Of a DNA stretch of 64,000 nt, positions 1 to 63,699 are shown piece after piece; position 1 is the first letter of the stretch; each line of letters begins with the position of its first letter. Made by a program: the position numbers and the translations under genes. Source of the stretch: Ginglymostoma cirratum (Eukaryota); assembly GCA_024137785.1 (NCBI GenBank), contig JAHRHZ010000289.1, forward strand, positions 42,100,578 to 42,164,577. The letters run 5' to 3'. The notes under the pieces were generated by a model. It did not search any database, was not told the origin of the DNA, and was given only the letters and a program-made list of their open reading frames with translations.

Positions 1-132
1 TTTCTGATGAAGGGTTTAGGCCCGAAACGTCAAGTTTTCCTGCTCCTGTGATGCTGCTTGACCTGCTGTGTTCATCCAGCCCCATGCTTGTTATCTCGGA
101 TTCTCCAGCATCTGCAGTACCTTTTATCTCTG
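1..132 (+). mobile_element. Penelope-like element terminal repeat (family 1) with hammerhead ribozyme at 4-31
   Basis: CTGATGA-AGGGTTTAGGCCC-GAAACGTC; same sequence as the 3' end of the GIY-YIG-bearing copy at 24934-25680. Confidence 0.85.
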
Positions 133-1395
133 GTGCATTGAAGTGGCAGGCAACAGGTAGCTCAGGGTCTTTTTTGCGAGCAGAACATAGATGTTCTGCG
201 AAGCAGTCACCAAGTCTACACTTTGTTTCCCCAATGTGGAGGAGACCACATTGTGAGCAGTGAATGCAGTAGACCAGATTCTGGGAAGTGCAGGCGAAGT
301 GTTGCTTCACCTGGAAGGTATGTTTGGGCCCTTGGATAGTGGGGAGGGAGGAGGTAAATGGGCAGGTGTTGCACCTTCGCCGGTTACAGGGGAAGGTGCC
401 GTAGGGCTGTGGGGAGGTGTTGGGGGTGATGGAGGTGTGGACCAGGGTGTCCCAGAGGGAACGGTCCCTGCGGAAGGTGGACAAGGGAAGGGATGGGAAT
501 ATTTGTCTGGAGGTGGCCACTTGCTGGAGGTGGCAGAAATGGTGTCTGCTGATCTGGATGTGGATGCTGGTGGGATGGTAGGTAAGGATAAGGGGAACCC
601 TATCGCTGTTGCAGGAGGGAAGAGAACAGGTGAGGACGGAAGTGCGGGAGATGGGTCAGACCTGGTTGAGGGGCCTATCAACAAAAGACTGGGGAATCCT
701 CATTTGAGGAAGAAGGTGGACATTTCAGAGGCTCCCCTGTCGAAGTTGGCCTCATCGGAACATATGCGATGGAGACAGAGGAACTGAGAGAATGGGATGG
801 AGTCTTTACGGGAAGTGGGGTGTGAGGAAGTATAGTCCAGATAGCTGTGGGAGTCAGTGGGTTTGTAATGGATATTAGTGGCCAGTCTATCCCCAGAAAT
901 GGAAACAGAAATGTCGAGGAAGAGAAGGGAGGAGTCAGAGATAGACCAGATAAAAGTGAGGGCAGGGTGAAAATTGGAGACGAAATTCATGAAGTTTTCC
1001 AATTCCAGACGAGAGAGGGAAGCAGCACCGACAACATCATCGATGTTTCGGAGAAAGAGTTGTGGGTGGGGGCCGGAATAGGACTTGAACAAGGAATGTT
1101 CCATGTACCCCATGAAGAGACAGGCATAACTAGGGCCCATGTGGGTACCCATGGCAACCCCTCCTGGCTAGAGAAAATGAGAGGAGTTAAAAGAGAATTT
1201 GTTGAGGGTGAGGACAAGCTCGGCCAAGTGGAGGACGATGGTGGTGGGTGGGGATGGTTCAGGTCTTTGCGCCTGGAAGAAGCGGAGCGTCTTAAGACCT
1301 TCCTGGAGGAGGATGGACGTGTAAAGGGATTGCACGTCCCTGGTAATGAGGAGGCTGCTGGGGCCGGCAAACTGGAAGTTTTGAAACCAGCATTT
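133..1395 (-). mobile_element. Decayed Penelope-like retroelement: RT plus start of the GIY-YIG endonuclease
   Basis: MGTHMGPSYACLFMG...FLRNIDD...FLDISV...YKPTDSHSYLDYTSSHP...IPFSQFL is typical PLE RT/thumb; LPVACHFN near 135-160; disrupted by frameshifts. Confidence 0.9.
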
Positions 1396-1484
1396 TCTAT
1401 ATCTCTTCTAGGCATGCCCACTTTGGAGAAATTCTGCTCCTCCCTCCAACAGGATTTTCGTTCCAGTCTTTCTTCTTGTCCACT

Positions 1485-1622
1485 CAGTTCTGAGGAAGGG
1501 TCACTGGACCCGAAATGTTAAATCTGTTTTTTCGTTAACAGATGCTGCCAGAACTGCTGGGTTTTTCCAGCAACTTTGTTTTTGTTCCTGATTTACAGTA
1601 TCCGCAGTTCTTTCGGCTTTTA
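1485..1622 (+). mobile_element. Penelope-like terminal repeat (family 2) with hammerhead motif at 1490-1520
   Basis: cagtt-CTGAGGA-AGGGTC-ACTG-GACCC-GAAATGTT; related copies at 17346-17576, 17800-17930, 56149-56245, 61050-61290. Confidence 0.75.
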
Positions 1623-1714
1623 TTAGGTACAATACCAGGTACAAAGTAAGTACAGTGTAAAGCTCTCTCTTTTCTTTCAAACTGAAATTAATATTTCCTC
1701 AATGTTGTTTCCAA

Positions 1715-2960: not shown

Positions 2961-3109
2961 ATAAAAATAAAAAGTCAGCCTTGAGGGGCTAATTAACCCT
3001 TTCTGAAGTAAAATAACAAACTTTGTTTTATCCTGCATGCTTGATAAACCAGAAAAAATTATAAACATGACATTGTGTCCAATTATTACAGTTTTCTTAA
3101 TTTATTTAC

Positions 3110-13775: not shown

Positions 13776-13905
13776 TTTCTGAAAAAGGGTCTAGGCCCGC
13801 AACGTCAGCTTTCCTGCTCCTCTGATGCTGCTTGGCCAGCTGTGTTCATCCAGCTCTACACCTTGTTATCTCAGATTCTCCAGCATCTGCAGTTCCTACT
13901 GTCTC
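13776..13905 (+). mobile_element. Penelope-like terminal repeat (family 1), degenerate hammerhead
   Basis: ttctgaaaaagggtctaggcccgcaacgtc with core substitutions. Confidence 0.75.
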
Positions 13906-16900
13906 TTAATTAATCTACTAATATTTTTAGCACGTCCTGCTGTCTAATTGCGTAATAAAGTTGTAATGGAAATAGTATTCAGATTGATGCGTGCCATTGA
14001 TATGCAGTGTACACGCCAGAGCATGTAGACCAACTAGTGTACAAAGGATATAAAGGTCTCAGACTCCATCTTACCCCAGGATAACTTGAAGCATGACACT
14101 CTACTTGAATGATGCTGCTCTGTTGTAACCGAGTAGCTTAAAGCCAACCAGGCACTGATGTGCCTGCAAATGAAACATGTGTAATTCACCAGCTCTCACA
14201 AACATTTGGTGGATCCTTCAATACCATGTCACCCTCTGCCAGTGTCCTATATTACAAAGAATAACAGAAACGTTGCCACATCAGATAAAGATACCACGAC
14301 TGAAGACAAACCTACATCAAGTCAAACGTCTTGATTCTTTTTAACATGTAACACTTCAAATATTTTAGTGCAAAGGGTAAATGGTAGAAGCAGATACAAT
14401 AACTATGTTAAAGAAACACTTGGACAGAAGCATGAACAGACCGGAAATAGAGGGATATGGCCCATGCGCACATAGATGGGGATTGTTTAGAATGGCATTG
14501 TGGTTAACACAGATATGGTGGGCTGAAGGGCCTATTCCTGTGCTGTACTGTTCTATGTATTAAATTGCATCATCCTGTATTTTGTTCCATTAGACACTTG
14601 TCCAGTCACGCCGACAGTTGTTACAAATAAATCTTTTCTTGGGTCCAACAACAAGAACAACACGGTGGATTTATGCAGCTCCTCCAACACAGGAAAATCT
14701 CCAAGTGTTTCAATAGAGCAATTATTGAACTAAATTTGACACCAAGCCACACATTGACATTTGAATGCAGATGACCGGATGCATGGGTAAATATTTTTGG
14801 CTCATTTCAGGAGGGCAGAGAGGTTTAAGGAGGGAATTCCAGAGTTTGGAGCCCAGGCAGCTGAAGGAACTGAAAGATCCAACAGTGGAGCAATTAAAAT
14901 CGGGGATGCAGAAGAGGCTAGAATTACAGGAAGGTGGTAATTTTGTGAGATTTGTAGAGCAGATGGAAGTTATTTTTGTATTAATAGAAATATTTACAAA
15001 TGCTCTAGTAGCTATGCAAATAAATATGCTAAGTAACCGCCATTAGAATAAGTAGGCAGTGATTCTTAGGTGACAATTGACATGTCTTAATTTGACCTGT
15101 ATGCTGTGTCGCACAAGCTTATGAGAGGAGTGGCAAGGATTTCCAAGACTTACAACCCTCTGAGAGAGGAAATTCCTCCCCATCTCAGGCCTAAATTGGT
15201 GCCCCTTAATTCTGAGACTATGCTTTCTGGGCCAAAATCCTGGAATTCCCTACAGCACATGGACTGCAGCAGTTCAAGAACGCAGCTCACCACCATCTTC
15301 TCCAGGGCAACTAGGAACGGGCAATAAATGCTGGTCCGGCCAGCGACACACATGTCCCATGAGTGAATAAAATAGAACACTTGAAAAAGCAGACAGTAAA
15401 TTTAATCGAGTCATGAGGGGTGTAGATTGAGTAACTAAAGAGGAACTGCTGCCAAGGACTGAAGGATTGAGAACCAGACAGAAGGAATCACAGGTAAATC
15501 AACCAGTGATTGGTTAGGACTTGGGGTACATTGATTGACAGAGTGGTAGGGGCCTGGAATGCGTTGCCGGAGAGGGTAGTGGAGTCGGCCTCATTAGGGG
15601 CATTTAAGCGGCTATTAGATAGGCATATGGATGATAGTATAAGGAAGGGGTGGAGGTTAGATAAATCTTAGGTTTAGGGTAAAAGTTCGGCACAATATTG
15701 TGGGCTGGAGGGCCTGTACTGTGCTGTACTGTTCTATGTTCTATGTTCTAATGCAATGGGTACAGGGTCAATCGTGGTTTTAAAAGGGAATTGGAAAGTA
15801 TCTGAACGGGAAGGGAAATTACAGTGGTATGGGAGAGAGAGAGTCAACTTAATGGGCCAAATACTCTCCTCTGTGCTGTACAATGATTATCTGATATAGT
15901 GCAATGTTCAAGCACACTGAGGTTTCATTGTGGAGTTTGTACCCAAGTCTTCAGAGTGGGTGTTGATGCCCACAGCCTGAGGGGAGACAGCCAGACACCG
16001 TGAGGGGTACACTGCCCATCTTAGGGTAGTGAAAGCTGATTCAGTAATTGATTCCCAAAGGAAACTGAATAAATACTTGAATGAAAAGTATTCTAAAAGC
16101 TCTGGAAAAAAAGAGCAGAGGAGAATGGATCTCGCAAAGGGCCAACACCGGGCTGAAAGGCCAGAGGGTTTCATGCTGTTCTCAATGATTCCAACAAATC
16201 CTCTTCCCAAAATCTCTCCGCAGCATTTACATTCATCAACCTGTTAATTTTATATATCCGTGCTGTCGCCCCTTTTAACACCTGAGCTCTAATTTTGCGA
16301 AGACCTCCATTGTGCAGCACATTATCAGATGTGATTGGAAGTCCATTTGTGCCACATAAACCACATTACCCCAACAACCCTTTTATGTTGTAAGCTGGAG
16401 GAGAAAGATTCAAAAAAGACATGAGGGCCAACGTTTTTACAGAGTATGGAATGAGCTTCTAAAGATAGTAGTGGATGCAGGTACAGTTTAAAAACATTTG
16501 GGTAATTACATGAATAGGAAAGTATTGGAGCGATATGGGCCAAATGCAGTCAGCTGGGACCAGTATAGTTTGGTATTATGGTTGGCATGGACTGGTTGAA
16601 CTGAAGGGTCTGTTTCAATGCTGCATGACTCCATGACACTAAAGGGCAATCTCTTTAACCTAGTTTCCAGTTACCTATCCTACTTCTCATCCTGTCAAGG
16701 AATTCCTTGGGTTTTAGTCACCGCAAACTAAACCTACTAGTTGGAAATTCATCAAGTGGCTGTGAAAGGTCAGGGTGGGAGGGACTGGAGGCGAGAGCTA
16801 TGAGACGGATTACAAATGGCTTCAGTCAATAGTGTGACCTCTTGCTGATCATAGAAACATTCAGCCCCCTTCCAGCTTTCACCCCCAACAAGTCCATGCA

Positions 16901-17345
16901 AGCCTCCCCGCCATTTCCCCCAATCTGCTCATTCCATCCACCTCCATCAGCATATCCTTCCACACCTTTTCCCAGGCTTCAGAGTAGGTTAATTACATGG
17001 ATAGGTCACATAAACAGAGCATGCCCTCGGGGTTAGAGAGAGTGGTAATCTCCCAAAAAGCATTTGGTAAAGTGGTCATGGAGAAATCAGTTCCTCATGA
17101 GGGAGAGCTCAGGAAATAGTTGACACAATTTAACGATTTGAAGCCAGGCCACTCAGGGGTGAGATCAGGGAGAATTTTGTCACCAGTGTGAAGTTGTCAA
17201 GTCGATGATAATGGCCTAATAATCAATTGTTCACTGGGGATTGGCAAAGTCTGGATTAATTTATTTCAAACAATAAAAGGCCACAATGCTGCCAGGCAGA
17301 GTCACAGCATTTGATACACAGTACAATGGACTCCTTAAGGATGAA

Positions 17346-17576
17346 CAAAAACAGAAGTCGTTGGAAAAACTCAGCAGGTCTGGCAGCATCTGTGAAGGAA
17401 AAAGCAGAGTTAACGTTTTGGGTCAGGTGACCCTCAGAACAGGTTCTGAGGAAGGGTCACCAGACCTAAAACGTTAACTCTGTTTTTTCCTTCACAGATG
17501 CTGTCAGACTTGCTGAGCTTTTCCAGCAACTTTGTTTTTGTTCCTGATTTACACCATCCGCAGTTCTTTCAGTTTT
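17346..17576. mobile_element. Fold-back Penelope-derived insertion (family 2) with 13-bp TSD
   Basis: Inverted arms; ccttaaggatgaa at 17333-17345 and 17577-17589. Confidence 0.8.
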
Positions 17577-18140
17577 CCTTAAGGATGAAGTCTTGTAAAG
17601 ACTTGGGGTCACATACAACAGAAATCTGGAACCCTCTCCCTTGCCGTATGTGGACACTCAAACACAATTGAAGTTGAAAACTGTGATTGATCAATTATTA
17701 ACTATCCCTCTCTCTCTGTCTCTCACGATCTCTGAGCTCTGTCTCCACCTTCTCCACATCCCCTGTCATCAAGATATTTACCACTTCCAACCAGATGCTA
17801 TCAGTTCTGACAAAGGGTCACCGGAATCAGAACATTAACTGTTTCTTGCTGCACAGATGCTGCCAGACCTGTTGAGACGCTCCAACACTTTCTGTTTTCA
17901 TTTCAGATTTCCATTATCCACAGTTCCTTCTTTCACATCATTGAGTGCGATTTGTACAGGTAAGGCTGTGAAGAGATGTACAGCCGAGACAGATAAATGG
18001 AGCTAGGATGCAGATCTAGCATAGATCTGTTGGAATGTTAGAACCACCTAAGTGGGCCAAATAAACTGTCCTGCCCCACCAGTGATCATTGTGCATCACA
18101 TCATTACAACATTGCATAGAAATAACACTTTGCAGTGAAG

Positions 18141-24933: not shown

Positions 24934-25680
24934 AAGTGTATCAGAGATAAAAGGTACTGCAGATGCTGGAGAATCCGAGATAACAAGCATGGGGCTGGAT
25001 GAACACAGCAGGTCAAGCAGCATCATAGGAGCAGGAAAACTTGACGTTTCGGGCCTAAACCCTTCATCAGAAATGGGGGAGGGGAAGAGGGTTCTGAAAT
25101 AAATAGGGAGAGAGGGGGAGGCGGATAGAAGATGGATAGAGGAGAGGATAGGTGGAGAGGAGACAGACAAGTCGAAGAGGCGGGGATGGAGCCAGTAAAG
25201 GTGAGTGTAGGTGGGGGGATAGGGAGGAGATAGGTCAGTCCAGGGAGGACGGACAGGTCAAGGGGGCGGGATGATGTTAGTAGATAGGAGATGGGGGTGT
25301 GGCTTGAGGTGAGAGGGAAAACAGGTTAGGGAGGTGGAGATGAGCTGGGCTGGTTTTGGGATGCGGTTGGGGGAGGGGAGATTTTGAAGCTTGTGAAATC
25401 CACATTGATGCCATTGGGCTGCAGGGTTCCCAGGCTGAATATGATTTGCTGTTCCTGCAGCCTTCGGGTGGCATCACTGTGGCATTGCAGGAGGCCAAGG
25501 ATGGACATGTCATCTGAGGAATGGGAGGGGGAGTTGAAATGGTTCGCGACTGGGAGGTGCAGTTGTTTGTTGCGAACTGAGCGCAGGTGTTCTGCAAAGC
25601 GGTCCCCAAGCCTCCGCTTGGTTTCCCTGATGTAGAGGAAGCCACAACGGGTACAGCGGATGCAGTATACCACATTGGCA
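24934..25680 (-). mobile_element. 5'-truncated Penelope-like element: GIY-YIG endonuclease plus 3' repeat with intact hammerhead
   Basis: VYCIRCTRCGFLYIRETKRRLGDRFAEH...PVANHF...LGTLQPNGINVDF; 13-bp TSD gaccacagattaa (24921-24933 / 25681-25693). Confidence 0.92.
25043..25070 (-). ncRNA. Minimal type I hammerhead ribozyme
   Basis: auuu-CUGAUGA-A-GGGU(UUAG)GCCC-GAAA-CG-UC-aagu; stem I AUUU/AAGU, palindromic ACGU in place of helix III, GUC cleavage triplet. Confidence 0.8.
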
Positions 25681-25789
25681 GACCACAGATTAAGGCAATT
25701 TCTGGAAACTAATGTAAACTAACATGGACTACCTGAACTGAAATTCCAATTTTACATATTTAAAAATGACAGGATTCACAGGACATGGG

Positions 25790-46000: not shown

Positions 46001-49000
46001 AAATGCCCTTGAGGAGTTGGTGATAAGATGCCTTCTTGAACTGCTGCCATCGATGTAGAGACATCCCAAGTGCTGTCAGAGCTCCAACAGATTGGCCCGT
46101 CAAGGCTGAAGGAAAAATAATGCGTCGCCAAGTCAGGGGGATGAGTGGAACTTGCAGAGGGATGGTGTTCCCATGTATCCGATGCGCCAGCCGCTCCAGG
46201 TGCGGGCAGTTGGTGGAATGGGGCTAAATAGATAGCTCTTTCCAGGAGCTGGCATGGGCATGATGGGCTGAATGGTCTCCCACTGTGCTACAAACAACAT
46301 TTTATGGGTTCACAACAGCTTTGAGAAGATTCCCCTTCAACAGTACCTTCAGCAGTTCTTCTACTTGTTCCAGCACAGTCAGGGGTTTGGCAGGAGTAGG
46401 TTTCGGAATCTGTTAGAAAATAAATGACTGTTCATTTCCATGTTTAATTAACCATAATAAAGCACTTTAAATCAAAATGCACCACAATGCCTTGCTCCGG
46501 TCCTGTCTACATGATTACAGTCAATCTTAGGCACCACAAGGTTAACTGGCACAGAGTAATTTTCTCAGGTTGCTGCTGCTGGCCCTGAGGAAGTACTAGA
46601 GCTGCCACCTTTCAGGAGACAGGTTGAACCCAGGCCCTCTCAGCTAGGTGCAGAAGCTCCTACTGCGTCTATTGTACATACTGCAGGGCTGTTCCCGGTT
46701 TAAACGTCAGCTGGCCACGAAAAAGACTTAACCAGGTCAATATGATCACCATCAAGATTAGCAAAGAGACAAATCTGAAAATCTTGAATGTCAAAGATGG
46801 GATGGAGAGCATCAACTTGGTGGAATTAAATCCAAAAATGATTTTAGTGGAGGTAACCTCAGCCTCTGAATTTGGAAGCTTTCACTGCCCATGATATGGC
46901 GAGGTTTTTAATAGGTAAAAAACACATGATAGGTTCCTGGGCATAGTGCGGGAGACAGAATGGAAAGGGAGGTGCCCATCCTCTCTCCCATCCCCCCCAG
47001 CTCATTGAGACAAGTGCCAACAGCTAATTAGAACTCTAAGATGATCTCTTCATCCAACAAGTTGGTTTTGGAGATCAGTCTCTGCATTTGACCAACATGA
47101 AAGCAACAGTCAATGTTGTGCACAGCAAGATCCAATTTAAAAAACTGCACATGAGATAACCGCAAGTGTTAGTTCTAGGTTTTCTCTAAGTTGGACATTA
47201 CCTTTGGACGTTCTGCATTTGGGTCAATGTAGGCCATGGGCATGTCCAAAATCATAGGTTTGACATGAATCATTGGCTTAGGTGCTGAAAAAGAAAGAGT
47301 GGCGTTTTTATTAGTACAACTTAGTGACAAGATGAAATGAAGATCGGAAGTTGGACATTCGTCTCCCGATAGGGGTGCGAATTGGGTTCAGAAGGACGAT
47401 GATGAACCTCGCTTTCTTTGAGCAGGAAAAATCAATTTTCCAGTACTTTCCCGACTCCGCACTATTTTCACATGGTCTTTTCATAGGTCAAGAGGACTTC
47501 AGATGCAAAACAGAAACAGTTAGTCTGCATGACCCTCCTGTGCTACTATGAAGACCAGAGAAAAACTGTATCACCTCCCACACACTACTTTCATTTTAAT
47601 CGCCCCCAGTGAACAATCCTCCTTGGAAACTTTATGAACACTGGAGAAAGACTGCCAAGGAATCCTGGACATGCTGGCAGCTAGACTTTAAATATTTTCA
47701 TATATCCAAATTCACTATTAGACGCCATGCTGTAATATTGAATGCATTATTAACGTAGTGATTGATCATGGGGTCTATTCTACAAAAAGGTAAACTCCCC
47801 ACAATCTTGGTCACCAGTGTACAAGTATTGACCTGCATTAAAGCATTTTTTTCCTCAAATGGGCAAAGTGCCATAATGCATTTAAGCTGTGGAAAGACAT
47901 GTTGGAAAATCCTCCTCTTAATTGGCAGTGGGATTTAGATGCACAGACATCGATGACTGTGAAGAAAATTCCAAGGGTCTCCTTCCTGTCCTTAAATTGA
48001 CAGAAAAGCAGATGAAACAATCTTTATTTCCATATCAGTCTTTCGAGCTAGGATACTAACGTTACAATGGCTGTCATCATTCTGAATTGCAGATTCTGAT
48101 CATGTCCCACATTTTTAATCCAAATTCCAGCACAGTCACAAGCTTGAAAATCCAAGCTTTAGGTGGATTACGGAAGATTTATGGAGCCAAAGTGGATAGA
48201 TTAGGGAAGGAAAAAGATCAGTGATCATCTCATTGAACAACAGAGCAGGCAATAGTTCTAGCCGTGAATTACAAAAATCTAAAACCTTACAACAGAAAGA
48301 GGCTGTGCAGCCCATTGGGAACTATCTAATCTAGTCTCACACCCAGCTTTAAACTCCAATGTGTAGGTGCTGATGTTGGACTGGGGCAGACAAAGTCAGA
48401 AGTCACACGACACCAGGTTACAGTCCAACAGGGCTTATTTGAAATCACAGCACTCCAAAACCTAGTGATTTCAAGTAAACCCATTGCAAAATAAATTTGA
48501 GATAACAAGGTGTGGAGCTGGATGAACACAGCAGGCCAAGCAGCATCAGAGGAGCAGGAAGGCTGACGTTTCGGGCCTAGACCCTTCTTCAGCAATATAA
48601 ATTTGGTGTCATGCAACTTCTGGCTGTAATCTCGGAAGCTTGCAAGTTATTCTTCCCCAATATCCATTTGGTTTCTGAAATTTCTGACATAATCTGGCTC
48701 CACCACTGTCGTGGGTTATGAGTCCAAGGTCATATCAACTCCACTCACTCCCCATAGTATTTTTGGGAGCTATTTTATATCCTGTGGCTGTTTGCAACCA
48801 GAAGGGAGAAACTGAGGAACAACCCGATGGAAGCTTTGAAGATTATGAAAAGGTTTGGTAGGGTAGACAAAGTTAGTTCAACTCACCAGAAGGGGTGTTG
48901 GGGCATCACAAACGTGAGGAAGTCACAATCAAAAACAAGCAAGAAAGATCAGGAGAACTTCTTTCTCCCTGAAAAGAATAAGGAATACCCAGGAAACAGT

Positions 49001-52000
49001 GAGGATATGGAATACATTGCTGCATGGAGTGATTTGGTCCATGATGTTGATAGGAAATTAGATAAACGAATGATGGCTAAAGGAATAGAGGGATACGTTG
49101 ATGGGGCTAGATGAAGAAAACAAGGAAGAAGCTGATGTTCAGCATAAATATTGGGATGAATGGCCTGTTTCAAAGACCAGGCCACCATGTAATATTGAAG
49201 CACTCAATGTTTTTTCCTAGTTACATCGTGAAAAGAAATGTGGCAACCAGTAACCCTCCTAAATCTCTCCTCACCACTAACTGCTCCAAAACAGAATAGT
49301 CCAATTCATCAACAATCACCACAAACCATCCCCCACCCCAAGAGCGACCAGTGGAATCATTTGGAGTTGGTGTTTAACTCAGACTCGTGAATCACTCTGG
49401 TGGTAGAATTCAAATTACAATAGCTGATGTGGTCTTCCTCAATCTATTCACCGATTGGTTCTGTTGCTCTGCTCACACCCACACCCACTTCCCACCCCTC
49501 AGATTGGTTTAGACGATAACAGTTAGTTGGGGAAGGGGGCACGGTGTACATACGGAATCGGTTCCGGTTTGAGGTGTACTTCTGCTGGATGAGACTGGTC
49601 GTCTGTTGCAGGTGGGTTATCGTGCTCTGCTGCTTCACCAAAAAAACAACGCTGGCAACTTGCCCGGCGATCAGCATGGCCGCCAACACGGTCACACCAC
49701 CCCAAAGAAGGCTCTTGGAGCAGGTGGGGCTGCTGTAATGAAGAACAATGAATGAATACCATTAATGCTAAGTTCAAAGGAGTTGCCATAACTCTGTCTA
49801 GATGCATGCTGGGTGTTTTCACCATGTGGCCTTCCAACTCTTCCCACAACCCCATTCTTCTCACAGCCAGTTGGATAGTCAACAGGTACACTCTTGCTGG
49901 ATTGGTTGGCTCTTAATTGTTGACTAAACTGCCTTTGATTCCCCCTCACCATAACTAGCCCTCCCGTTCCAATACCCTTAAATCTCATGACATTCATTTA
50001 ACTGCTCAATTAAAAGGGCTGTTTTGGTAGGAGTAGGCCATCAAGCCCATCAATCTGCTCCACCATTCAGTGCGGCCATGTCTTCCAGTTCACGTCAATA
50101 CTGTTTTCCCACACCATCCCCATATCCCTCTTCGTCGCTGGTACTTAGAAAGTTGTCAATCTCTTTCATGCGCCTTCCAGTTGTTCCTTGTGGTGTGTGG
50201 GGGAATTCAGACTCAATTTTGTCAGCTCTCCAAGGATGATCCTGGATGACCCCATTGAGGTTCCCCCTTTTCTAATTTAGTGCTGATATTTTGGAATAAA
50301 CTTATGTGGAATAAACTTCCAGAGGAAGTGGTAGATGCAGGTACATTTACAACATTAAAAAGACTTTTGGTCAGATACATGGATGGGAGCAGTTCAGAGA
50401 GCTGTGGGCTAAATGCAGGCAGGTGGGACTAGTTTAGTTTGAGAAACTTGGTCAGCATTCACTGGTTGGACTGAAGGGCCTGTTTCTGTGCTTTGGTATA
50501 ATAGAGTCCGCTATATCTGATCAGACGATGGACCTGTTTCAGTGAACCAGACTCTAGGAGAGTACGAATCAGACAATATAACCTAGCTCTGTTTTTGTGT
50601 ACCATCCATGGGTTAAGTTTACTCACATCTCAAGATCATAATCTCGCCTCATTTCTCCATCGATGTTTGGTGAATAGCTGCAGGGCTTTGTTCTCCTACC
50701 CAGTGCATAAAACCTTCATTATTGAACCCATTCTGTCAAATATTACTGATAAAAGGTACTGCAGATGCTGGAGAATCCGAGATAACAAGCATGGGGCTGG
50801 ATGAGCACAGCAGGCCAAGCAGCATCACAGGAGCAGGAAAACCCGACGCCTCGGGNNNNNNNNNNNNNNNNNNNNNNNNNNNNNNNNNNNNNNNNNNNNN
50901 NNNNNNNNNNNNNNNNNNNNNNNNNNNNNNNNNNNNNNNNNNNNNNNNNNNNNNNNNNNNNNNNNNNNNNNNNNNNNNNNNNNNNNNNNNNNNNNNNNNN
51001 NNNNNNNNNNNNNNNNNNNNNNNNNNNNNNNNNNNNNNNNNNNNNNNNNNNNNNNNNNNNNNNNNNNNNNNNNNNNNNNNNNNNNNNNNNNNNNNNNNNN
51101 NNNNNNNNNNNNNNNNNNNNNNNNNNNNNNNNNNNNNNNNNNNNNNNNNNNNNNNNNNNNNNNNNNNNNNNNNNNNNNNNNNNNNNNNNNNNNNNNNNNN
51201 NNNNNNNNNNNNNNNNNNNNNNNNNNNNNNNNNNNNNNNNNNNNNNNNNNNNNNNGAAGGGTTTGGGCCCGAGGCGTCGGGTTTTCCTGCTCCTGTGATG
51301 CTGCTTGGCCTGCTCTGTCAAATATTACTGTTGTCCAACTTCGAAGGTTCCAACAAGACCTGCCCTAATTTGTGAATGTCATGAGAATTTGATCAATTCC
51401 TGTTGTGTTTCTAGAATTCAGACTTTTCTCGATCAAACAGCATCAGGAAAGTCCCAAATATTTTCCACTCAGCTGATGCAAACAAGAGTCAGTAGTCACC
51501 TCGGTGAAAACAAAAATAGGGGCAATGGACACAGCGGTAAAGAGGGGTCATGGGTAAGAGGGTCAACTTTTTGTGGTAGCTGTAGATATTAATTACTCCA
51601 GGCTCTTGTCTTTGAACTGTGCATCATCCCCCTGTGTTACTCCAGGCGACCTTTTCCCTTGGACAATATTCACTGCCCTAACAAGGGACAACAGTCAAGA
51701 GGATAAGTGTGGACAGTGGCTCAGTGGTTAGCACTGCTGCCTCACAGCACTGGGGACCCAGGTTTGATTCCAGCCCTAGGTAACTGTCTGTGTGGAGTTT
51801 GCTCCAGTTTCCTCCCACAGTCCAAAGATGTGCAGGCTAGGTGGATTGTCCACGGGATATTCCCCATAGTGTCAAGGAATGTGTAGGGTAAGTGGATCGG
51901 CCATGGGAAATACAGGGATAGGATGGGTCTGGGCTGGGATGTCCTTCCAAGGATTGGTGATGGGTTGAATGGCCTCCTTTTACATTGTATGGATTTTGTG

Positions 52001-55000: not shown

Positions 55001-57043
55001 CCTGGCTGAACAGGCAGGATCTGCACTAAATCAGCAGCAATTCATGGCTCAGTGGCGACTTCTGGTGGAGCGACTGTTTGTGGGTCTGAGTGTAGTTGAG
55101 TGATGTTGGCAATCCTGTTTAAACTTGGCAAATAATAACACTGAGCCAAACTTTTTTTGGGGGGGCGGGGGGAACCTCGGTTGCACAGAGCCGCATCAAC
55201 TTTTTTTTTTTAAGAGACTCTCTTATCTACATGGCAGATTTGATGTTTTTGGAAGGCAGAGATCTAGCTTCAGGGAACAGAGTAAGATCTGACAGGCTTC
55301 AAAAGGACTCCAAAGTTTAAAATACAATAAAAGAAATATATAGGGATGGGGCTGGATGAACACAGCAGGTCAAGCAGCATCATAGGAGCAGGAAAACTTG
55401 ACGTTTCGGGCCTAAACCCTTCATCAGAAATCATTCCTATGATGCTGCTTGACCTGCTGTGTTCATCCAGCCCCATGCTTGTTATCTCGGATTCTCCAGC
55501 ATCTGCAGTACCTTTTATCTCTGAAAAGAAATATATAGCTGCCTAAGAAAAAACAAAAAAAAAAAAATCTAAACTCAGCTCCCAGCTAGAACTGTTTAGA
55601 TTCTGATCGAGCTGCTGTTAAGTCCCATGTACAGACATTAAACAGAGAGAATGGTTCATTTCACACAAAGAGTCGACCTGCCATTGTGTAGAGACTGAAC
55701 CATCCGAAGAAAACTGACGCGCGCCCCCACAATCTGGCATAACTTCGCTGGTTTTGCAGTATATAAAAGATACAAGAATTAAAGGTTAGAGGAGAAAGAT
55801 TTGCAAACGTACAATGAATTTTATGAAGTCCATTTAAAGTTGGTAATGTAGAAAATACAGCCACAGATTGCAGAGCAAGATTCCACAAACAATAATGTAA
55901 TAAAATGACCAAATCACTTTTTTTTTTAAAATTGTGCACGATGTTGGTTGAGTGATAATTTGACCAGGACAATTGGCTCTAAAATTAAAAAAAAATGCAC
56001 AGGTGCATAAGAAAAGTGAGCAAAAAAAAAAAAAATCTACATTCAGGTCCCAGCTAGAACTATTGAGATTCTGCATCTGAGCGGCTGTTACACGTCCCAC
56101 GCAGTGACATTAAAGAGAAAATGGTTCATTTCGCACAAAATGTCACAATTCTGAGGAAGGGTCACTCATAACCGAAACAGTAACTCTGCTTTCTCTCCAC
56201 GGATTTTGCCAAACCTGCTGAGCTTTTCCAGCAACTTCTAATTTTGTCACTGGGCACCACTCCCCTGTTCCTTTAATGATCAGCTATATTTACCACAGGA
56301 GGCAGAGTTTTGTTTTAAAAGTGCCTTAATCTTCTGCAGTGGAACACACAATCCCGATGTGAAACTACATCACAATTCCACATTGTCACTGGGTCAAAAT
56401 CTTGGAATTCCCCCCAGTTTACCTCTATCCCCAGGACTGCGATGTTTCAAGAAGGCAGCTCACTACCATCTGCTCAATTAGGGACTAGCAACAAATGCTG
56501 GTAAAGCCTGATTGTTTTAAGAAATAGACAATTCCCCGCAAAGAAAATTAAGCTAAACCCGACAAACATCCTCAGGAGGTTTCACAGACTGTGCACCTCT
56601 CACGCATGAGACTCCACTAAGCAGCAAATAAAAAAAAAAATGGTAAAACACTCGAGGGTGGAAATCTGAAAAAGATGCAGAAAATGCTGGAGATACCCAT
56701 GGCATCATGAGAGAGAGAGGCTGTTAATATTTCCAGCCTGATTTAATTCTTTTCCAGGACATAGTACCTAGATCTGAGTTTTGAAGTTATACCAGACTAG
56801 AAATATTAACTCTACTTCCCTCTGCATAGCTACTGAGTCCCTCCAGAAAGCATATCTTTTCAATCTCTCACCAGCAAACAATTCCACAAAGATTTTCTTA
56901 TAGATGTTAAAACAGAAGGGTTGTGCATGATCTAAATCTTACCTCTGGCCGGTAACAGTAGTCCTGGCTTCCACACTGCTCTGGCTAGCAATATCTTGCT
57001 GTGAATTATTCAGCAAAGCGTTCTGCTGCTCGTCGGCTGACAT
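34031..57043 (-). CDS. CD74: MHC class II invariant chain (Ii/CD74), spliced gene; coding exons 57043-56943, 49732-49554, 47284-47202, 46409-46347, 44763-44668, 43606-43486, 41835-41752, 37884-37690, probable last exon 34038-34031
   Basis: Manual splice reconstruction gives one open frame. It contains an N-terminal dileucine-type motif (EQQNALL), a juxtamembrane Cys, a type II TM with LIAGQ, a Met/Pro-rich CLIP segment, a trimerisation domain (NLDLLRDSMTESEWQDFETWLRNWLFFQL) and a thyroglobulin type-1 domain. All introns are GT-AG with matching phases. Confidence 0.96.
36724..37410. repeat. Direct repeat copy A (downstream of the thyroglobulin exon)
   Basis: Near-identical to 38505-39173 apart from scattered substitutions and one ~18-bp indel. 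Confidence 0.92.
37690..37884 (-). CDS. CD74: CD74 thyroglobulin type-1 exon (p41-type, equivalent of exon 6b)
   Basis: 195 nt, phase 1-1; six Cys, [33 protein letters not shown]; acceptor tcttccctcgttcag, donor C|GTATGT. Confidence 0.96.
38505..39173. repeat. Direct repeat copy B (upstream of the thyroglobulin exon)
   Basis: Near-identical to 36724-37410. Confidence 0.92.
39188..39375. mobile_element. Fold-back insertion, Penelope-like family 3, degenerate hammerheads
   Basis: Arms 39207-39268 / 39311-39372; ctgacaagggagcagtgctaagaaagctt on + and gtgatgaa...ctccgaaagctt on -; related fragment at 48374-48480. Confidence 0.7.
40680..41170 (+). mobile_element. Penelope-like 3' fragment (end of GIY-YIG plus terminal repeat)
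   Basis: KLEEQHLIFRLGSLQPNGLNV at ~40783-40845, followed by a family-1-like tail. Confidence 0.8.
41752..41835 (-). CDS. CD74: CD74 additional linker exon (ERKIFSSVAMKSMMVSLPEPAKAPVSKK)
   Basis: Pyrimidine-rich acceptor ccttctttgttcctgtttacaacag, donor AAG|GTAACT; 84 nt, symmetric phase 1-1, open in frame between exon 6 and the thyroglobulin exon. Confidence 0.8.
43486..43606 (-). CDS. CD74: CD74 exon 6 (DFETWLRNWLFFQLIQEKKSAPTTSAPRFDPIPEPEPQPR)
   Basis: Acceptor tttgctgtttacag, donor G|GTACGT, phase 0 to 1; matches human VFESWMHHWLLFEM. Confidence 0.95.
44668..44763 (-). CDS. CD74: CD74 exon 5, trimerisation domain (KDNATKEIPEFNSTFSANLDLLRDSMTESEWQ)
   Basis: 96 nt, phase 0-0, donor CAG|GTTAGT; resembles human [25 protein letters not shown]; two N-glycosylation sequons (NAT, NST). 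Confidence 0.95.
46347..46409 (-). CDS. CD74: CD74 exon 4 (IPKPTPAKPLTVLEQVEELLK)
   Basis: 63 nt, phase 0-0, acceptor ttttctaacag, donor AAG|GTACTG; EQVEELLK aligns with human EDHVMHLLQ. Confidence 0.92.
47202..47284 (-). CDS. CD74: CD74 exon 3, CLIP region (PPKPMIHVKPMILDMPMAYIDPNAERPK)
   Basis: Acceptor ctctttctttttcag, donor AAG|GTAATG, phase 1 to 0; PPKP plus a Met-rich core as in mammalian CLIP. Confidence 0.93.
48499..48592 (-). mobile_element. Penelope-like terminal repeat (family 1) in CD74 intron 2
   Basis: CTGAAGA-AGGGTCTAGGCCC-GAAACGTC on the minus strand; 5' strand of stem I lost. Confidence 0.8.
49554..49732 (-). CDS. CD74: CD74 exon 2, transmembrane segment (SSPTCSKSLLWGGVTVLAAMLIAGQVASVVFLVKQQSTITHLQQTTSLIQQKYTSNRNRF)
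   Basis: Acceptor ttcttcattacag (tandem CAGCAG), donor C|GTATGT, phase 2 to 1; resembles human [33 protein letters not shown]. Confidence 0.95.
50749..51313. mobile_element. Fold-back Penelope-derived insertion spanning a 400-N gap, 17-bp TSD
   Basis: tctgtcaaatattactg at 50732-50748 and 51314-51330; mirrored arms. Confidence 0.78.
51711..51996 (+). mobile_element. tRNA-derived SINE (HE1-like)
   Basis: A/B boxes and the same body as the other copies. Confidence 0.8.
52150..52380. promoter_or_regulatory. Candidate CD74 intron-1 enhancer
   Basis: Cluster in apparently non-repeat DNA: ATGCTAAT, GGGGTTTTCC (52213-52204), TGAGTCA (52248-52254), GGAAAATTCC (52263-52272), ATTGG (52273-52277). Confidence 0.35.
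55344..55523. mobile_element. Fold-back Penelope-derived insertion in CD74 intron 1, 15-bp TSD
   Basis: aaaagaaatatatag at 55329-55343 and 55524-55538; arms 55345-55387 / 55435-55477. Confidence 0.88.
55400..55427 (-). ncRNA. Minimal type I hammerhead ribozyme, sense to CD74 pre-mRNA
   Basis: auuu-CUGAUGA-AGGGUUUAGGCCC-GAAACGUC-aagu, identical to the copy at 25043-25070. Confidence 0.78.
56943..57043 (-). CDS. CD74: CD74 exon 1, cytoplasmic tail MSADEQQNALLNNSQQDIASQSSVEARTTVTGQ
   Basis: ATG with A at -3 and an in-frame TAG 39 nt upstream; donor AG|GTAAGA, phase 2; acidic-dileucine endosomal sorting motif similar to human DDQRDLI. Confidence 0.9.
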
Positions 57044-57938: not shown

Positions 57939-58655
57939 TAAAGGATTTTCTGATGAAGTGTCTAGGCCCGAAACGTCAAGTTTTCCTGCTCCTATGATGC
58001 TGCTTGACCTGCTGTGTTCATCCAGCCCCATGCTTGTTATCAATGTTAAAGATGTGTTTCTTTTTTAAAGAAACCCTTTAATACACTGAGACAACAAGGT
58101 GTAGAGCTGGATGAACACAGCAGGCCAAGCAGCTTCAGAGGATCAGGAAAGCTAACTTTTCAGGTCTGGACCCTTCTTCAGAAAAATGTTTTTTTTGAAG
58201 AAGGGTCCTGACCCGAAACGTCAGCTTTCCTGCTCCTCTGTTGCTGCTTGGCCTGCTGTGTTCATCCCGCTCTACACCTTGTTATCTCAGATTCTCCAGC
58301 ATCTGCAGTTCCTACTATCCCTTTAATACACTGTATGTGTCTCAGACAAAGCCAATATTTGGTGACCATCCCTTAACTGAGGGTAAGTGAGAGTCAGTCA
58401 CCATGGGTCTGGATCCACATGTGGCCAGACTGCGAAAAAGAGCGGATTCTTTCTCTAAAAAGCACTAATGAGAATCTATTCAGGGATAGTAGGAACTGCT
58501 GATGCTGGAGAATCTGAGATAACAAGGTGTAGGAGCTGGATGAACACAGCAGGCCAAGCAGCATCAGAGGAGCAGGAAAGCTGACGTTTCGGGTCTGGAC
58601 CCTTCTCTGCCTGGCCTGCTATGTTCATCCAGCTCCTACATCTTGTTATCTCTGG
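57939..58655. mobile_element. Cluster of three Penelope-derived terminal-repeat or fold-back insertions upstream of CD74
   Basis: TSDs aatgttaaagatgt (57925-57938 / 58042-58055) and ccctttaatacactg (58074-58088 / 58319-58333); third copy ~58484-58652. Confidence 0.82.
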
Positions 58656-59415: not shown

Positions 59416-61386
59416 CATGAATCTATTGAGTATTTGGAGTCCCAGCAACAGAAGTAGAAGAATTAAATGATATTCCCAATGATTATCAACCTTCTTTTCT
59501 GTGTAAAGCCACAACATGCAAGGAGAGCGTGAATTTTCTAGACCACACAGTACTTGAAGCTGTATTTTGACGGGTACTTTTGAAGTGAATTCACCTCCTC
59601 TCATCCCCACTGAGCTCTGAAATTAACCCTCACAACTGAGTTCCCATCTGAAATCAATCGCTTACCCCAGATCATTAAAAAGGGAGTGTGGCAGTTCAGT
59701 GCCACTGAGAGGTTTGCTCAGATATTTCAGAGAGAAGTTAAGAGTCAGCTACATTGCTGCTGGTCTGGAGTCACATGTAGGTCAGACCAGATCAGGATGG
59801 TCAATTCCCTTCCCTAAAGGACTTTTGTGAACCAGATGGGTCTTTTCAACAAATGGTGACCATATTAATCCAGATTTTATTTGCCATGATGTGACTTGAA
59901 TCCATTGAGCCATAAGTACAACACAGAAGATGCCCTTCAGCCCATTGAATCTTTGCCGACCTGTCTCACCTAATCCCACTTTCCAGCACGAGGTTCATAG
60001 GCTTGAATGTTATGACACTTCAAGTGCTCATCCACATACTTTTTAAAGATTGTGAGGTTAACTACCCTCCCAGGCAGTGCATCCCAGATCATGGTCTGGG
60101 TGAAGAAGAAATTCCTCAAATCTGTTCTAAACCTCCTGCCCGACATATTAAAATCATGCCCTTTCATTTTTCACCCCTCAACTAAAAGGAACTATCTGTC
60201 CTGTGCATACCCCTAACCATTGGCCGGAGGCCCTAGATATCTCATCCATTGCCATTACCACCATGCTACTACCATGCAGGTGCATGGGAACACCACTCAC
60301 TACAAGATCTTTCCCCAACCCTTACACCATCCTAACTTGGAAATATATCACCATTCCTTCAGTGTTGGTGGGTCAGTCCTGGAACTCCCCTCCTGATGGC
60401 ATTGTGGTGTTCCTACACCCCATGGACCGCAACGGTTCAAGAAGGCACCTCACCACCACCTTCTCCAGGGCAATTACAGATGGGCAATAAATGTTGGTGC
60501 AGCCAGAGTCAACAATATCCAATGAGTGAGTATATTTTGAGGAAGAGGCAATGGTTTCAGCGGAGGATGGAGAAGTGCCAGCGTTTCAAGTTGGCAAAAG
60601 CCAGAGACAGGTTTCAGAGAGGAGTAGCTTTCAGTTTTACAATACACAATGAACGTAGAGATAGTAAGAACTGCTGATGCTGGAGTCTGAGATAACACAG
60701 TGTGGAGCTGGAGGAACACAACAGGCCAGGCAGCATCAGAGGAGCAGGAAAGCTGACGTTTCAGGTCGAGGCCCTTCTTCAGAATTTCAGTGTTCCCCCC
60801 ACCTCCACACTGTGTTATCTCAGCATCAGAAATGTGTTACAATGAACATAGATATGCCTGCTCCAGTCTCTGTGCCTCTGGTTTAACAGATCTCTGGCTC
60901 ATATTTCAAGTAAATATAAACCTGTTCCTCTAGGTGTCTGGTGGCTGACTTTCCAGTTGTAAAGATCAAAGGAATAAAAAGAAAGGGAGTGCATCGCTTT
61001 AGTACCTTCCAACTTCTCAAGACGTCCTAAAGCATTTCACAACGAATCAAACAAAAGCAGAAATCGCTGGAAAGACTCAACAAGCCTGGCAGCGTCTATG
61101 GAGAGAAATCAGTTAACGTTTAAAGTTAAACAGTTAAAGTTGAGCCTTCTTCAGAATGCAACCCTTGTTTTGAAGAAGGGTCACCGGACCCGAAACGTTA
61201 ACTGATTTCTCTCCCCTCAGATGCTGCCTGACCTGTTGAGTTTTTCCAGCAATTTCTGTTTCCATCATCTGTAGTTCTTTCAGGGTTTTCTTTTCCACAA
61301 CCAATGAAGTAGATTCTGTTACAGTGGATGGAAGCATATTGGCCAATTTTGCAGATAGCGAACTCCCAAAATCAAATAACGACCTG

Positions 61387-62724
61387 AGATAAAAGGTACT
61401 GCAGATGCTGGATAATCCGAGATAACAAGGCGTGGGGCTGGATGAACACAGCAGGCCAAGCAGCATCATAGGAGCAGGAAAACTTGATGTTTTGGGCCTA
61501 GACCCTTCATCAGACCCTTTTCTGATGAAGGGTCTAGGCCCGAAACGTCAAGTTTTCCTGCTCCNNNNNNNNNNNNNNNNNNNNNNNNNNNNNNNNNNNN
61601 NNNNNNNNNNNNNNNNNNNNNNNNNNNNNNNNNNNNNNNNNNNNNNNNNNNNNNNNNNNNNNNNNNNNNNNNNNNNNNNNNNNNNNNNNNNNNNNNNNNN
61701 NNNNNNNNNNNNNNNNNNNNNNNNNNNNNNNNNNNNNNNNNNNNNNNNNNNNNNNNNNNNNNNNNNNNNNNNNNNNNNNNNNNNNNNNNNNNNNNNNNNN
61801 NNNNNNNNNNNNNNNNNNNNNNNNNNNNNNNNNNNNNNNNNNNNNNNNNNNNNNNNNNNNNNNNNNNNNNNNNNNNNNNNNNNNNNNNNNNNNNNNNNNN
61901 NNNNNNNNNNNNNNNNNNNNNNNNNNNNNNNNNNNNNNNNNNNNNNNNNNNNNNNNNNNNNNNNGTTCTGGTCACCACACTACAGGAAGGATGTAATTGT
62001 TCTAGAGTGTGTGCAGAAGAGATTCATCAGGATGTTGCTTGGGCCGGAACAAGCCAAGATATGAAGAGAGACGGGATAGAGTGGGGTTGTTTTCCTTATA
62101 GCACAGAAGGCTGGTTGAGGTCTACAGAGTTTATGAGGGGCATAGATAAGGAAAAATAGGAGAAACTTTTCCCCTTATTAGAGGAGTCAATAATCAGGGA
62201 TACAGTTTTAAGGTAAGGGGCAAGAGGTTTAGAAGGAATTTGAGGAAAAACATTTTCACTCACTGCCTAAAAGGGTGATGGTGTGGTGGGGTGGGGGGGG
62301 CGACACCCTCAAGAGGTTTAAGAAGTATATAGATGAGTATGTGAAACAAGGCTATAGGCTAGAAAGTGGGAAAATGGTTGATGACTAGTATGCATACAAT
62401 AGGCTGAAGGGCTTCTTTCAGTCCCTTAAAACACTTAATTCTATGAAAGGTTGATATACAAAGGGATAACAAGCATGGGGCTGGATGAACACAGCAGGTC
62501 AAGCNNNNNNNNNNNNNNNNNNNNNNNNNNNNNNNNNNNNNNNNNNNNNNNNNNNNNNNNNNNNNNNNNNNNNNNNNNNNNNNNNNNNNNNNNNNNNNNN
62601 NNNNGGGCCTAGACCCTTCATCAGACCCTTTTCTGATGAAGGGTCTAGGCCCGAAACGTCAAGTTTTCCTGCTCCTATGATGCTGCTTGGCCTGCTGTGG
62701 TCATCCAGCCCCATGCTTGTTAGC
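61387..62724. mobile_element. Fold-back Penelope-derived insertion(s) with head-to-head hammerheads, two N gaps and an enclosed CR1 fragment
   Basis: cttcatcaga-cccttt-tctgatgaag junction at ~61505-61530 and ~62615-62641; TSD tcaaataacgacctg at 61372-61386 and 62725-62739. Confidence 0.75.
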
Positions 62725-63699
62725 TCAAATAACGACCTGTTAATTTGTGCTTTAATGATGTTGACTGAAGGGTAAATATTGATCACAGTGGTGGGGATAT
62801 TTCCCTGCTCTTCTTCAAACAGTGTTCACATCTGAAGAGGTAAACAGAACCCTTGGTTTCATCCAAAAGACAGCACCTCTGACAGCGCAGTGTGCCCTCC
62901 ACAATATTGTTAACTCTAACTGGGAATGTGTTTCTCAAGGTTTCATCAACTGAGGTGGACTAGCCCCATAAAACTGTGGCTGCGAGAGCAGGTCAGAGAC
63001 TGGGAATCCTGCAGTGAGTAATGCTGACTCCTGACTCCCCAAAATATGTCTGCCCTCTCAACACTGCCCCGAGTGTGATGGAATACTCTGCATGAAGGCA
63101 AGTCCTGCAACATGCAAGAAGCTCAACACCATTTACATCAAAGCAGATTGAGCAGTCTCAGCCTGTCCCCCTTCACCATCCGCTCCCTCCACCACCGATG
63201 TTCAGTTGCAGCAGTGTGTACCATCTACAAGATGCGCTGCAGCAGCTCACCAAAGCTCCATAGAGAGTATTTTCCAAATCCTTCTGCCATCTAGAAGGAT
63301 GAGGGCAGGAGACAAATAGAATACCATGGCCTGAAAGATCCTTCTCAATCCACCCACCATCCTGACTAAGACATATGTCACTGTTCCTTCAATGTCATGG
63401 GGTCAAAATCCTGGAACTCCCTCCCTAATGGTGTTGTGGGTCTACCCGCACCATATGGACTGCCAGTTTTTCAAGGGACAATTAAAGATGTGGAATAAAT
63501 GCCAGCCCAGCCAACAACAGCCACATCCTAATAATAAGCTTTTTTTAAAACTTAGTTTAGCATACGGTGAGGGTGCACTCTTATTCTCAATGGCTCTGAC
63601 ACTATAAGACCTTGTGTAACCTGTTTTCGTTCTTCCCCAGCTTTCTCTAGGCACTGACTGGCAATAGTTACCCACTCACCAAAGTCTCTCTGGTTTCCC

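Follow-up and report, generated by a model that had tools for sequence, protein, structure and literature searches.

Fold-back insertions of Neptune-type Penelope-like elements in Ginglymostoma cirratum: paired head-to-head copies that may derive from one RNA

Introduction

The reverse transcriptase (RT) of Penelope-like elements (PLEs) is the sister group of that of telomerase. Another family of retroelements, LINE-1, is known for twin priming, in which a single RNA is primed from the two nicked strands of the target, giving a head-to-head inversion within one target site duplication (TSD). For the insertions of EN+ PLEs, an inverted pLTR and a tail of 30-40 bp have been published (PMC3846280, PMC8557442), and a passage of PMC8557442 terms the inverted ends and the one-sided tail "still undefined features". 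Opposite-strand hammerhead pairs, 100-700 bp apart, are likewise described in a section of PMC4209133, without a mechanism. In the portions of PMC11167929 that bear on our subject, both target strands are cut and extended in vitro, two internal start sites delimit the tail, hammerhead cleavage is dispensable, and the strands do not differ in their start sites.

Here, we will focus on a stretch of 64,000 nucleotides of Ginglymostoma cirratum (contig JAHRHZ010000289.1, positions 42,100,578 to 42,164,577), the whole of which we call the window, and on a sampling of the genome by 50 scattered 10-kb stretches, from which the 21 that were wholly N were excluded. We will examine how the fold-backs of this window are built, how their two arms may have been made, and how they compare with these described systems.

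The fold-backs of the window

Alignment to the family consensus places 35 pLTR-derived arms in the window, 20 of which span the hammerhead, its core being intact in 7; a strict scan for CUGANGA-stemII-GAAA retains 10 sites. The 20 spanning arms agree with the original prediction, which had counted about 20 copies or remnants of the hammerhead in the 64 kb. Inverted arms are found at 17348-17539, 31589-31771, 39202-39377, 55346-55476, 58086-58290 and 61471-61564, and all the fold-backs that they form are head-to-head, with the 3' ends of the element facing outward. Their arms are unequal, as a tail of about 35 nt is carried by one arm. The claim that they are non-coding palindromes with their own TSDs holds, since TSDs of 13-17 bp occur at 17343, 31589, 50749, 55347, 58088 and 61387 (those of 50749, 16 bp, and 61387, 13 bp, were taken directly from the sequence), and a repeat of at least 10 bp was found in 4 of 300 shuffled flank pairs. 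The fold-back of a third family expected near 39188 is indeed there, as a head-to-head pair of family D (39181-39377), and a search of its flanks gave no TSD.

Two fold-backs were borne out in part. The one at 50749 has its TSD, but its central junction is hidden because a gap of 400 N fills its centre. The one at 61387 is a fold-back with its TSD, but the same junction and TSD are met again at 62605-62726 across two N gaps, and the two most likely belong to a single element that the assembly has split. An Rfam scan returned no hammerhead family at E<=1 and only sub-threshold matches to miRNA hairpins; a miRNA identity was rejected for these matches, which reflect the hairpins. The features of the window are collected in Table 1, in which arm positions are counted from the hammerhead C3, the long site lying at about +128 to +134 and the short site at about +93 to +96.

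Table 1. Arms and fold-backs of Penelope-like elements in the window
Feature	Position	Strand	Remarks
Family A pLTR arm with long (tail) end; hammerhead core intact	1..132	+	Left context beyond window
Broken 5'-truncated family C ORF arm, RT + GIY-YIG fragments	133..1392	-	Limits approximate; faces the 1393-1624 arm head-to-head
Family C N-terminal ORF piece (~1393-1483) + pLTR arm, -6 to long site	1393..1624	+	Template jump at the 5' end of the RNA likely joined ORF piece and pLTR
Solo A/B arm, from -3 to the long end	13776..13907	+	TSD not found
Family C fold-back, short arm (-) + long arm (+)	17343..17576	.	14-bp TSD
Old family C arm	17800..17929	+	
Solo A/B arm, long end	18363..18486	+	
Family A long arm: GIY-YIG ORF end (25326-25718), 3' UTR, long end	24942..25720	-	
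TATA-like box of the preceding arm	25099..25105	-	Predicted start A at 25074
Hammerhead core of the same arm	from 25070	-	Cut predicted at 25043/25042
Solo A/B arm, intact core, long end	29127..29260	-	
A/B fold-back, short + long arm	31589..31807	.	16-bp TSD; centre an 11-nt unit, ~3 repeats, copy of the adjacent stem II
Family D fold-back, partial tail on left arm	39181..39377	.	TSD not found
Solo A/B arm, intact core, short end	48499..48596	-	
Family A fold-back	50749..51315	.	16-bp TSD; N gap 50856-51255 over centre
Family A fold-back, left arm to -4, right (long) arm from +40	55347..55523	.	15-bp TSD
Solo family A arm, short end, T4 start	57947..58041	+	14-bp TSD
A/B fold-back, short + long, both arms to -3	58088..58322	.	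17-bp TSD
A/B fold-back, long + short	58481..58652	.	TSD not found
Family B fold-back, long arm + 30-nt short arm	60657..60821	.	TSD not found
Two old arms of family C in head-to-head order, each scored as short	61045..61261	.	No TSD; may be two separate events
Family A fold-back: long arm at 61386-61514, short arm up to 62726	61386..62726	.	13-bp TSD; split, partly duplicated across N gaps; DNA between the two parts likely misplaced in the assembly

The elements behind the fold-backs

Judged by their sequence, the fold-backs of the window appear to be insertions of Neptune-type PLEs (RT + GIY-YIG), Neptune and Nematis being taken together. Families A (L104, 778 aa) and C (L086) give Pfam matches to RVT_1 and GIY-YIG, within one ORF that carries the RT and, at its C-terminal end, GIY-YIG, and have CYTC and CNTC motifs upstream of GIY, an assignment to Neptune/Nematis that is based on motifs. 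As in EN+ PLEs, the hammerhead pLTR is present at the 3' end and, in tandem copies, ahead of the ORF, while insertions include an inverted 5'-truncated copy, a tail at one end and a TSD. In size, the inverted copies form a continuum between stubs and arms of kb length. In family C, 25 of 30 near-full-length loci have a pLTR that continues beyond the long site into the ORF; therefore, the long and short sites are both internal. Of these 25, 5 begin at -3 to -6. Behind the long end, 236 flanks of family A have no sequence in common, so that the 5' region of this family escaped detection. All four family consensuses carry what we take to be a TATA-like box and an initiator-like word.

Two fixed outer ends and a long staggered cut

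The orientation of the pairs is almost invariable, with 95 head-to-head against 2 tail-to-tail. One long-site arm is combined with one short-site arm in 66 of the 73 classifiable pairs (p 2e-13), the other 22 of the 95 having an end outside both ranges. This rule is followed by 49/55 pairs in unselected DNA, by 53/55 pairs carrying a TSD and by 13/16 of the long pairs. The mode of the TSDs is 14 bp, and the target is A/C-rich before the TSD and T/G-rich after it; this mode and this symmetric bias support the long staggered cut by the endonuclease that had been suggested. The reading of the fold-backs as products of truncation and inversion stands as far as a recurrent insertion product is concerned, but it does not cover ends that are fixed, long plus short, and centres that are piled at the predicted transcription start.

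The centres and the common T-run

The arms stop at this predicted start, which is the front edge of the hammerhead, and the centres are piled at -3 to -6. The T-run found at this edge is T3 in 72/72 read-through copies and T4-5 in 11/26 arm starts. Genome-wide, the two arms read T3/T3 at 353 loci, T4/T4 at 212 and mixed at 31, against 281 mixed expected. As the length of the T-run is common to both arms, both were likely copied from one RNA, likely primed from both strands of a cut staggered by about 14 bp. Between the two arms, 12% of diagnostic sites mismatch, random pairs reaching 33%, and rare bases are common to both arms in 46/276 cases against 2.7%. Over 11 events the mismatch between arms is flat from centre to edge, which counts against a hairpin corrected at a later stage.

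Among single-base centres, 353 loci have C/G and 11 have A/T. A cap-derived G was considered for the centres and rejected: it is not above 0.25 (12/48 in A/B, n.s., and 3/20 in C), and two-base centres are mostly of the templated form (34/50 by hand count of the first 50 listed), so that a cap G is not needed. Templated filler shows a weak excess (9/21 against 4.2 expected). The raw RNA runs X21 and X22 gave no pile-up of starts or ends and no start or end sites; the reads of X21 are equal on both strands.

How the two arms may be made

We favour, with some confidence, the reading of the fold-backs as the shortest PLE insertions, in which both arms would come from one RNA through priming on both cut strands. 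Its steps are read entirely from genomic fossils. The element RNA would begin at the front edge of the hammerhead, about 30 nt behind the TATA-like box, and the polymerase would occasionally stutter at the first U-run. The enzyme, probably a dimer, would cleave both strands about 14 bp apart, and each target 3' end would then serve as primer for reverse transcription, starting at one or other of two sites inside the RNA and close to its 5' end. Both cDNAs would reach this 5' end and be joined 3' to 3', by template jump or end joining; reading one RNA twice would require strand displacement. Polymerase II may stutter on the first U-run, a step for which our literature search found no paper. An RNA that starts inside the pLTR would thus leave only a stub, long copies needing a read-through tandem RNA. 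The stubs, which have no TATA box and are predicted to bury their hammerhead, are therefore likely dead ends.

Solo arms count against this reading: 78/97 have neither a TSD nor a partner within 70 bp, and the model of one RNA primed twice covers TSD-less solo arms only via deletion, decay or a long partner. Hidden micro-arms were considered for the solo copies and rejected, a TSD being carried by only 19/97 (control 5/200) and a partner being scored in 4, each time of the opposite end class.

The strongest rival, which we hold to be unlikely, keeps one RNA with one priming: the cDNA would run from the long site to the RNA 5' end, turn, copy itself and stop at the short site, the stutter of the T-run being then made by the reverse transcriptase. 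This would account for the common T-run, the common rare bases and the perfect centres without a double reading of the RNA. However, in 27/66 events the 5' reach of the short arm exceeds that of the long arm by more than 8 nt (the converse in 15), and one locus (L117) joins a short arm of 2.45 kb to a long arm of 135 nt. The central base is also found in both orientations, at 6 and 5 complete loci, although the assembly may flip centres, and the short site starts synthesis in vitro in the experiments of PMC11167929.

Still less probable are two RNAs, one per enzyme monomer, each primed from one strand and perhaps paired with each other via the palindromic helix III. The dimer predicted for a related protein (in the relevant part of PMC11167929) would suit them, as would the arms that differ at hammerhead position 7 in 6 of the first 50 listed loci and the mismatch at diagnostic sites, higher than the 6% of other sites; events of the L117 type may use two pLTRs or two RNAs. 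Against this, mixed T-runs occur at just 31/596 loci, though the same subfamily haplotypes hold both lengths, and T4 is absent from all read-through copies.

The hammerhead and the question of spread as units

The hammerheads are of the minimal type I, with a core CUGANGA/GAAA/UH, an extra base before G10.1 and a palindromic helix III, and stem I is just 2-4 bp in A/B. Their core is intact in 49/209 of the arms that span it. Under equilibrium folding, the rod of the fold-back is predicted to pair the core (P unpaired <=0.01 in the 3 scored elements with both arms reaching it), and in a transcript of either strand the antisense arm comes first. Free-energy co-folding of two hammerhead units gave no active dimer, a method that cannot judge the dimer. 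At the hammerhead cut there is neither a peak of arm starts in A/B (2/201 arms at +27 to +29), which speaks there against arms beginning at this site, nor a pile-up of RNA reads, and neither result is a test of the chemistry.

These observations bear on the proposal that each fold-back is a non-autonomous ribozyme element of rod shape, carrying hammerheads in both polarities and propagating as a unit. It can draw on junctions that are identical across 353, 212 and about 118 loci, on fold-back joints in poly(A) RNA reads, and on one odd 28-nt junction at two loci 82 kb apart. The original prediction had held that shared junctions imply units, and one junction is indeed present at 353 loci, but it spans several subfamily haplotypes and therefore recurs by mechanism, which makes the criterion misleading. 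In the same way, the 61387 junction is found at 6 loci with tail side and diagnostic bases varying, and the two loci with the 28-nt junction differ at subfamily sites in both arms. Moreover, 94 of 95 junction strings are distinct, the sole repeat adjoining an N gap, the fold-backs have no TATA box, and their core is predicted to be buried. Equilibrium folding of elements with both arms over the core gave no active ribozyme fold in either polarity, and the copies are not those of one master with the same junction, as they would be for a MITE- or SINE-like element. A family D junction seen more than 20 times was discarded, being a short hairpin inside the family C ORF. We thus consider this rod-shaped ribozyme not supported and spread as units very improbable, as a main route already largely refuted.

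For rotifer Penelope, a passage of PMC3846280 proposes self-priming on an antisense template, which explains the head-to-head orientation and the junction palindromes of that study, but it is the least credible rival here, since it predicts neither a fixed outer end for each of the two arms nor a centring on the sense-strand start with a stutter missing from genomic templates.

Implications and comparison with known systems

What is new is the regularity: long and short ends, centres at the predicted start and a T-run common to both arms. These counts give a sharp model for the published in vitro system, with one site per strand, one RNA and run-off at the start, which on our favoured reading explains why tiny hairpins are most of the copies and full-length offspring would come from tandem copies only. 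The same reading explains why such genomes contain hairpins in numbers of the order of 10^5, which disrupt assemblies and resemble miRNA precursors and ribozyme replicons. Whether this is a double-copy integration of PLEs, undescribed for other retroelements, we judge evenly balanced: a dimer would make the ~14-bp cut, one RNA would be read twice from two fixed sites, every insertion would be born as a long and short inverted pair, and the stutter would act as a single-molecule barcode at hundreds of loci.

The twin priming of LINE-1 resembles this in its one RNA, its two strands, its head-to-head product and its single TSD. However, its cDNAs cover separate parts of the RNA with a variable second start, whereas here they overlap and have two fixed starts.

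The extra base between A9 and G10.1, the G10.1-C11.1 pair, the palindromic 15.2-16.2 and the stem II variants with pairing kept, all noted for PLE minimal hammerheads in parts of PMC4209133, are also present here. The non-LTR retrozymes, in the portion of bioRxiv 10.64898/2026.07.22.740005 that describes them, are likewise non-coding, derived from the pLTR and endowed with a type I hammerhead, but they form head-to-tail tandem arrays, none of which is found in the window, while the fold-backs are single head-to-head pairs.

The EN+ PLEs are closer, as the head-to-head 5'-truncated copy, the one-arm tail, the TSD and the continuum from stub to kb appear in the passages of PMC3846280 and PMC8557442. 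The TSD mode is 14 here against 8-10 in Adineta, the tail, optional and uncounted in these passages, is on exactly one arm in 53/55 TSD pairs, and the centre, which they do not place at a transcription start, lies at the predicted start in our copies. Poseidon_Ac, as far as the relevant parts of PMC11167929 describe it, shares with our elements two internal starts delimiting the tail, the cutting and extension of both strands, a hammerhead cleavage that is not needed and no RNA ends at the cut site. Those parts do not treat inverted products and find the strands alike in their choice of start site, an in vitro result that does not show the rule of one site per strand. In comparison with Poseidon_Ac, the start sites of our family C are found upstream of where the ORF starts, and our elements belong to a Neptune-type clade.

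The fold-backs and the DNA compared

The fold-backs, head-to-head inverted pairs of pLTR arms, are genuine insertions of an ordinary class and not a new replicon. The window, from an assembly of 4.36 Gb, was compared with 1.15 Mb of non-N DNA of this genome, made up of a contiguous 0.53 Mb surrounding the window, 0.28 Mb from scattered stretches and a remainder chosen by similarity, and positions within arms are numbered from C3 in the hammerhead CUGA. The hammerhead motif, fold-backs and target site duplications (TSDs) of the original prediction are all present in the window, which holds 35 pLTR arms, 20 spanning the hammerhead core and 7 with the core intact. Assembly gaps interrupt the elements at 50749 and 61387, the latter most likely forming a single element with 62605-62726. 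N gaps occupy the centres of young fold-backs (50856-51255, 61565-61964, 62505-62604), and many loci counted below for their T-run likewise have central N gaps, with junctions duplicated about 430-475 bp apart; the youngest copies are thus under-assembled.

The arms fall into four consensus groups: subfamilies A and B share one lineage, and C and D each stand separately; median identities to consensus are 93% (A), 90% (B), 86% (C) and 88% (D). Families A and C sit 3' of ORFs encoding RT and GIY-YIG, with a Cys motif in the linker that the available text of PMC8557442 gives as a mark of Neptune/Nematis. Most copies of the family C ORF (L073:2354 and others) carry a short perfect coding hairpin directly before the GIY-YIG motif. 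In full-length family C copies (L251:1490-1516 and others), the first ATG that follows the tail is directly preceded by a pyrimidine tract with AG, whose sequence resembles a splice acceptor; the RNA joints listed include no spliced one.

Similarity searches with window fragments returned 54,389 and 126,027 first-look candidates, and one strict symmetric pattern matches 2,475 loci genome-wide. Pair densities (62 in 0.53 Mb near the window against 11 in 0.28 Mb scattered) point to a genome-wide number on the order of 10^5. Long copies have a layout identical to that of the stubs, so the two form one continuum. Fold-backs of one family have often landed in another Penelope-like copy, within its pLTR or 3' UTR (L163:1270-1720; the BIG region, L009 and L093).

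Other repeats in the window (the fragments are of another non-LTR retrotransposon, which we take to be CR1-like)
Feature	Position	Strand	Detail
Minisatellite	1711-2122		period 70
Minisatellite	9269-9631		period 24
Minisatellite	11037-11619		period 37
Decayed non-LTR retrotransposon fragment	5779-6557	-	RVT_1 match at 5779-6192
Decayed non-LTR retrotransposon fragment	27662-28069	+	
Decayed non-LTR retrotransposon fragment	30380-30805	+	

Outer ends and target sites

Arm pairs are head-to-head in 95 cases and tail-to-tail in 2. Arms end 3' at two sites, short and long: +92-94 and +127-129 in A, about +96 and +134 in C, and about +80-88 and +121 in D. Both sites are internal, since family C continues beyond the long one into the ORF at 25 of 30 loci. 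Both ends could be classified in 73 of the 95 head-to-head pairs (22 could not), and 66 of these 73 combine a long with a short end, against 4 long-long and 3 short-short (p 2e-13). The same combination is found in 49/55 pairs from unselected DNA, in 53/55 pairs bearing TSDs and in 13/16 long pairs, four of which overlap the 95. In 53 events the TSD measures 10-18 bp, most often 14 bp, and it is preceded by A/C-rich and followed by T/G-rich bases; this would match what is expected of a dimer cutting both strands.

Likely one RNA for both arms

L1 twin priming, end joining with templated filler, polymerase stutter and hairpin correction form the general background here. The T-run at the arm start is T3 in 72/72 read-through copies, which continue upstream past that start, whereas it is T4-5 in 11/26 arm starts (p 7e-8); the variant therefore arises at the RNA 5' end. 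Counted exactly over the whole genome, centres with a single C/G base comprise 353 T3/T3, 212 T4/T4 and 31 mixed pairs, whereas 281 mixed pairs are expected if the two arms vary independently (p 1e-104). Double counting across gaps affects some loci but cannot account for a ninefold shortfall. T3 and T4 both occur within the same subfamily haplotypes, and diagnostic and rare bases are common to both arms of a pair. Against a single RNA primed by both strands of the cut, the arms differ at hammerhead position 7 in 6 of the 50 loci listed, and 78/97 solo arms lack a TSD. The 22 pairs left unclassified, the unsupported cap G and the failure to see an RNA start (below) also weigh against it.

Whether the second arm was templated by the RNA or by the first cDNA is less sure. 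Two primings on the RNA are favoured, because the short arm extends further 5' in 27/66 events and the central base occurs in both orientations (6 loci against 5). Later correction of a hairpin is an unlikely cause of the likeness between arms, since mismatch does not change markedly from centre to edge (7.0, 7.0, 7.8 and 5.8%; 11 events).

Centres and the predicted RNA start

The 5' ends of arms form a peak at -3 to -6, at least one arm lies at -9 to +2 in 44/66 events, and 5/25 near-full-length family C copies start at the peak. Every consensus has a motif about 30 nt upstream, which we take to be a TATA-like box, and the peak site fits what is presumably an initiator word and coincides with the opening base of hammerhead stem I. 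For X21, a raw poly(A) RNA run from which 45,003 reads were placed after taking roughly one quarter of it, 15 joints were listed out of a set with 175 more; in 11 of these 15 the strand switches and one side falls at 25069-25077 of the window, the same place as the peak; fold-back joints thus exist outside this assembly. No RNA start was seen in the raw runs X21 and X22, and a cap-derived G, sought at the centres, had no support. At 1393-1624 (+), a family C ORF-start piece is joined directly before a pLTR arm beginning at -6, in a head-to-head pair, a join that resembles a template jump at the 5' end of the RNA. The centre at 31662-31698 consists of about three copies of a 10-11-nt unit from stem II and resembles iterative templated filler.

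The hammerhead

The rod-shaped ribozyme retroelement proposed earlier is not supported: stubs begin behind the TATA box, an antisense arm leads on either strand, the core is predicted paired in all three fold-backs scorable for it, and the same junctions recur on different subfamily haplotypes. Folding energies predicted for four fold-backs are -126 to -187 kcal/mol; at 55347, where the second arm lacks the core, the predicted fold leaves the core partly or wholly open. Arm starts have no peak at the predicted hammerhead cut, nor did the X21 reads show RNA ends at this point. When two ends stop at the same place, their simplest joins are the junctions seen to be shared. A 28-nt junction has its sole two exact genome matches at L163:1500 and L164:1500 (contig positions 42091127 and 42173563), in fold-backs 82 kb apart whose arms differ at subfamily sites.

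Relation to known systems

The available texts already describe the inverted layout of Penelope-like insertions (PMC3846280, PMC8557442), their hammerhead ribozyme (PMC4209133) and retrozymes (bioRxiv 10.64898/2026.07.22.740005). In our literature search, run on listings with most subscription journals outside them, no paper turned up in which Penelope-like elements are explained by two-ended priming on a single RNA. The fold-backs provide a quantitative fossil record by which the unsolved integration step becomes testable. Their internal long and short sites resemble the two start sites of Poseidon_Ac, as presented in the available text of PMC11167929.
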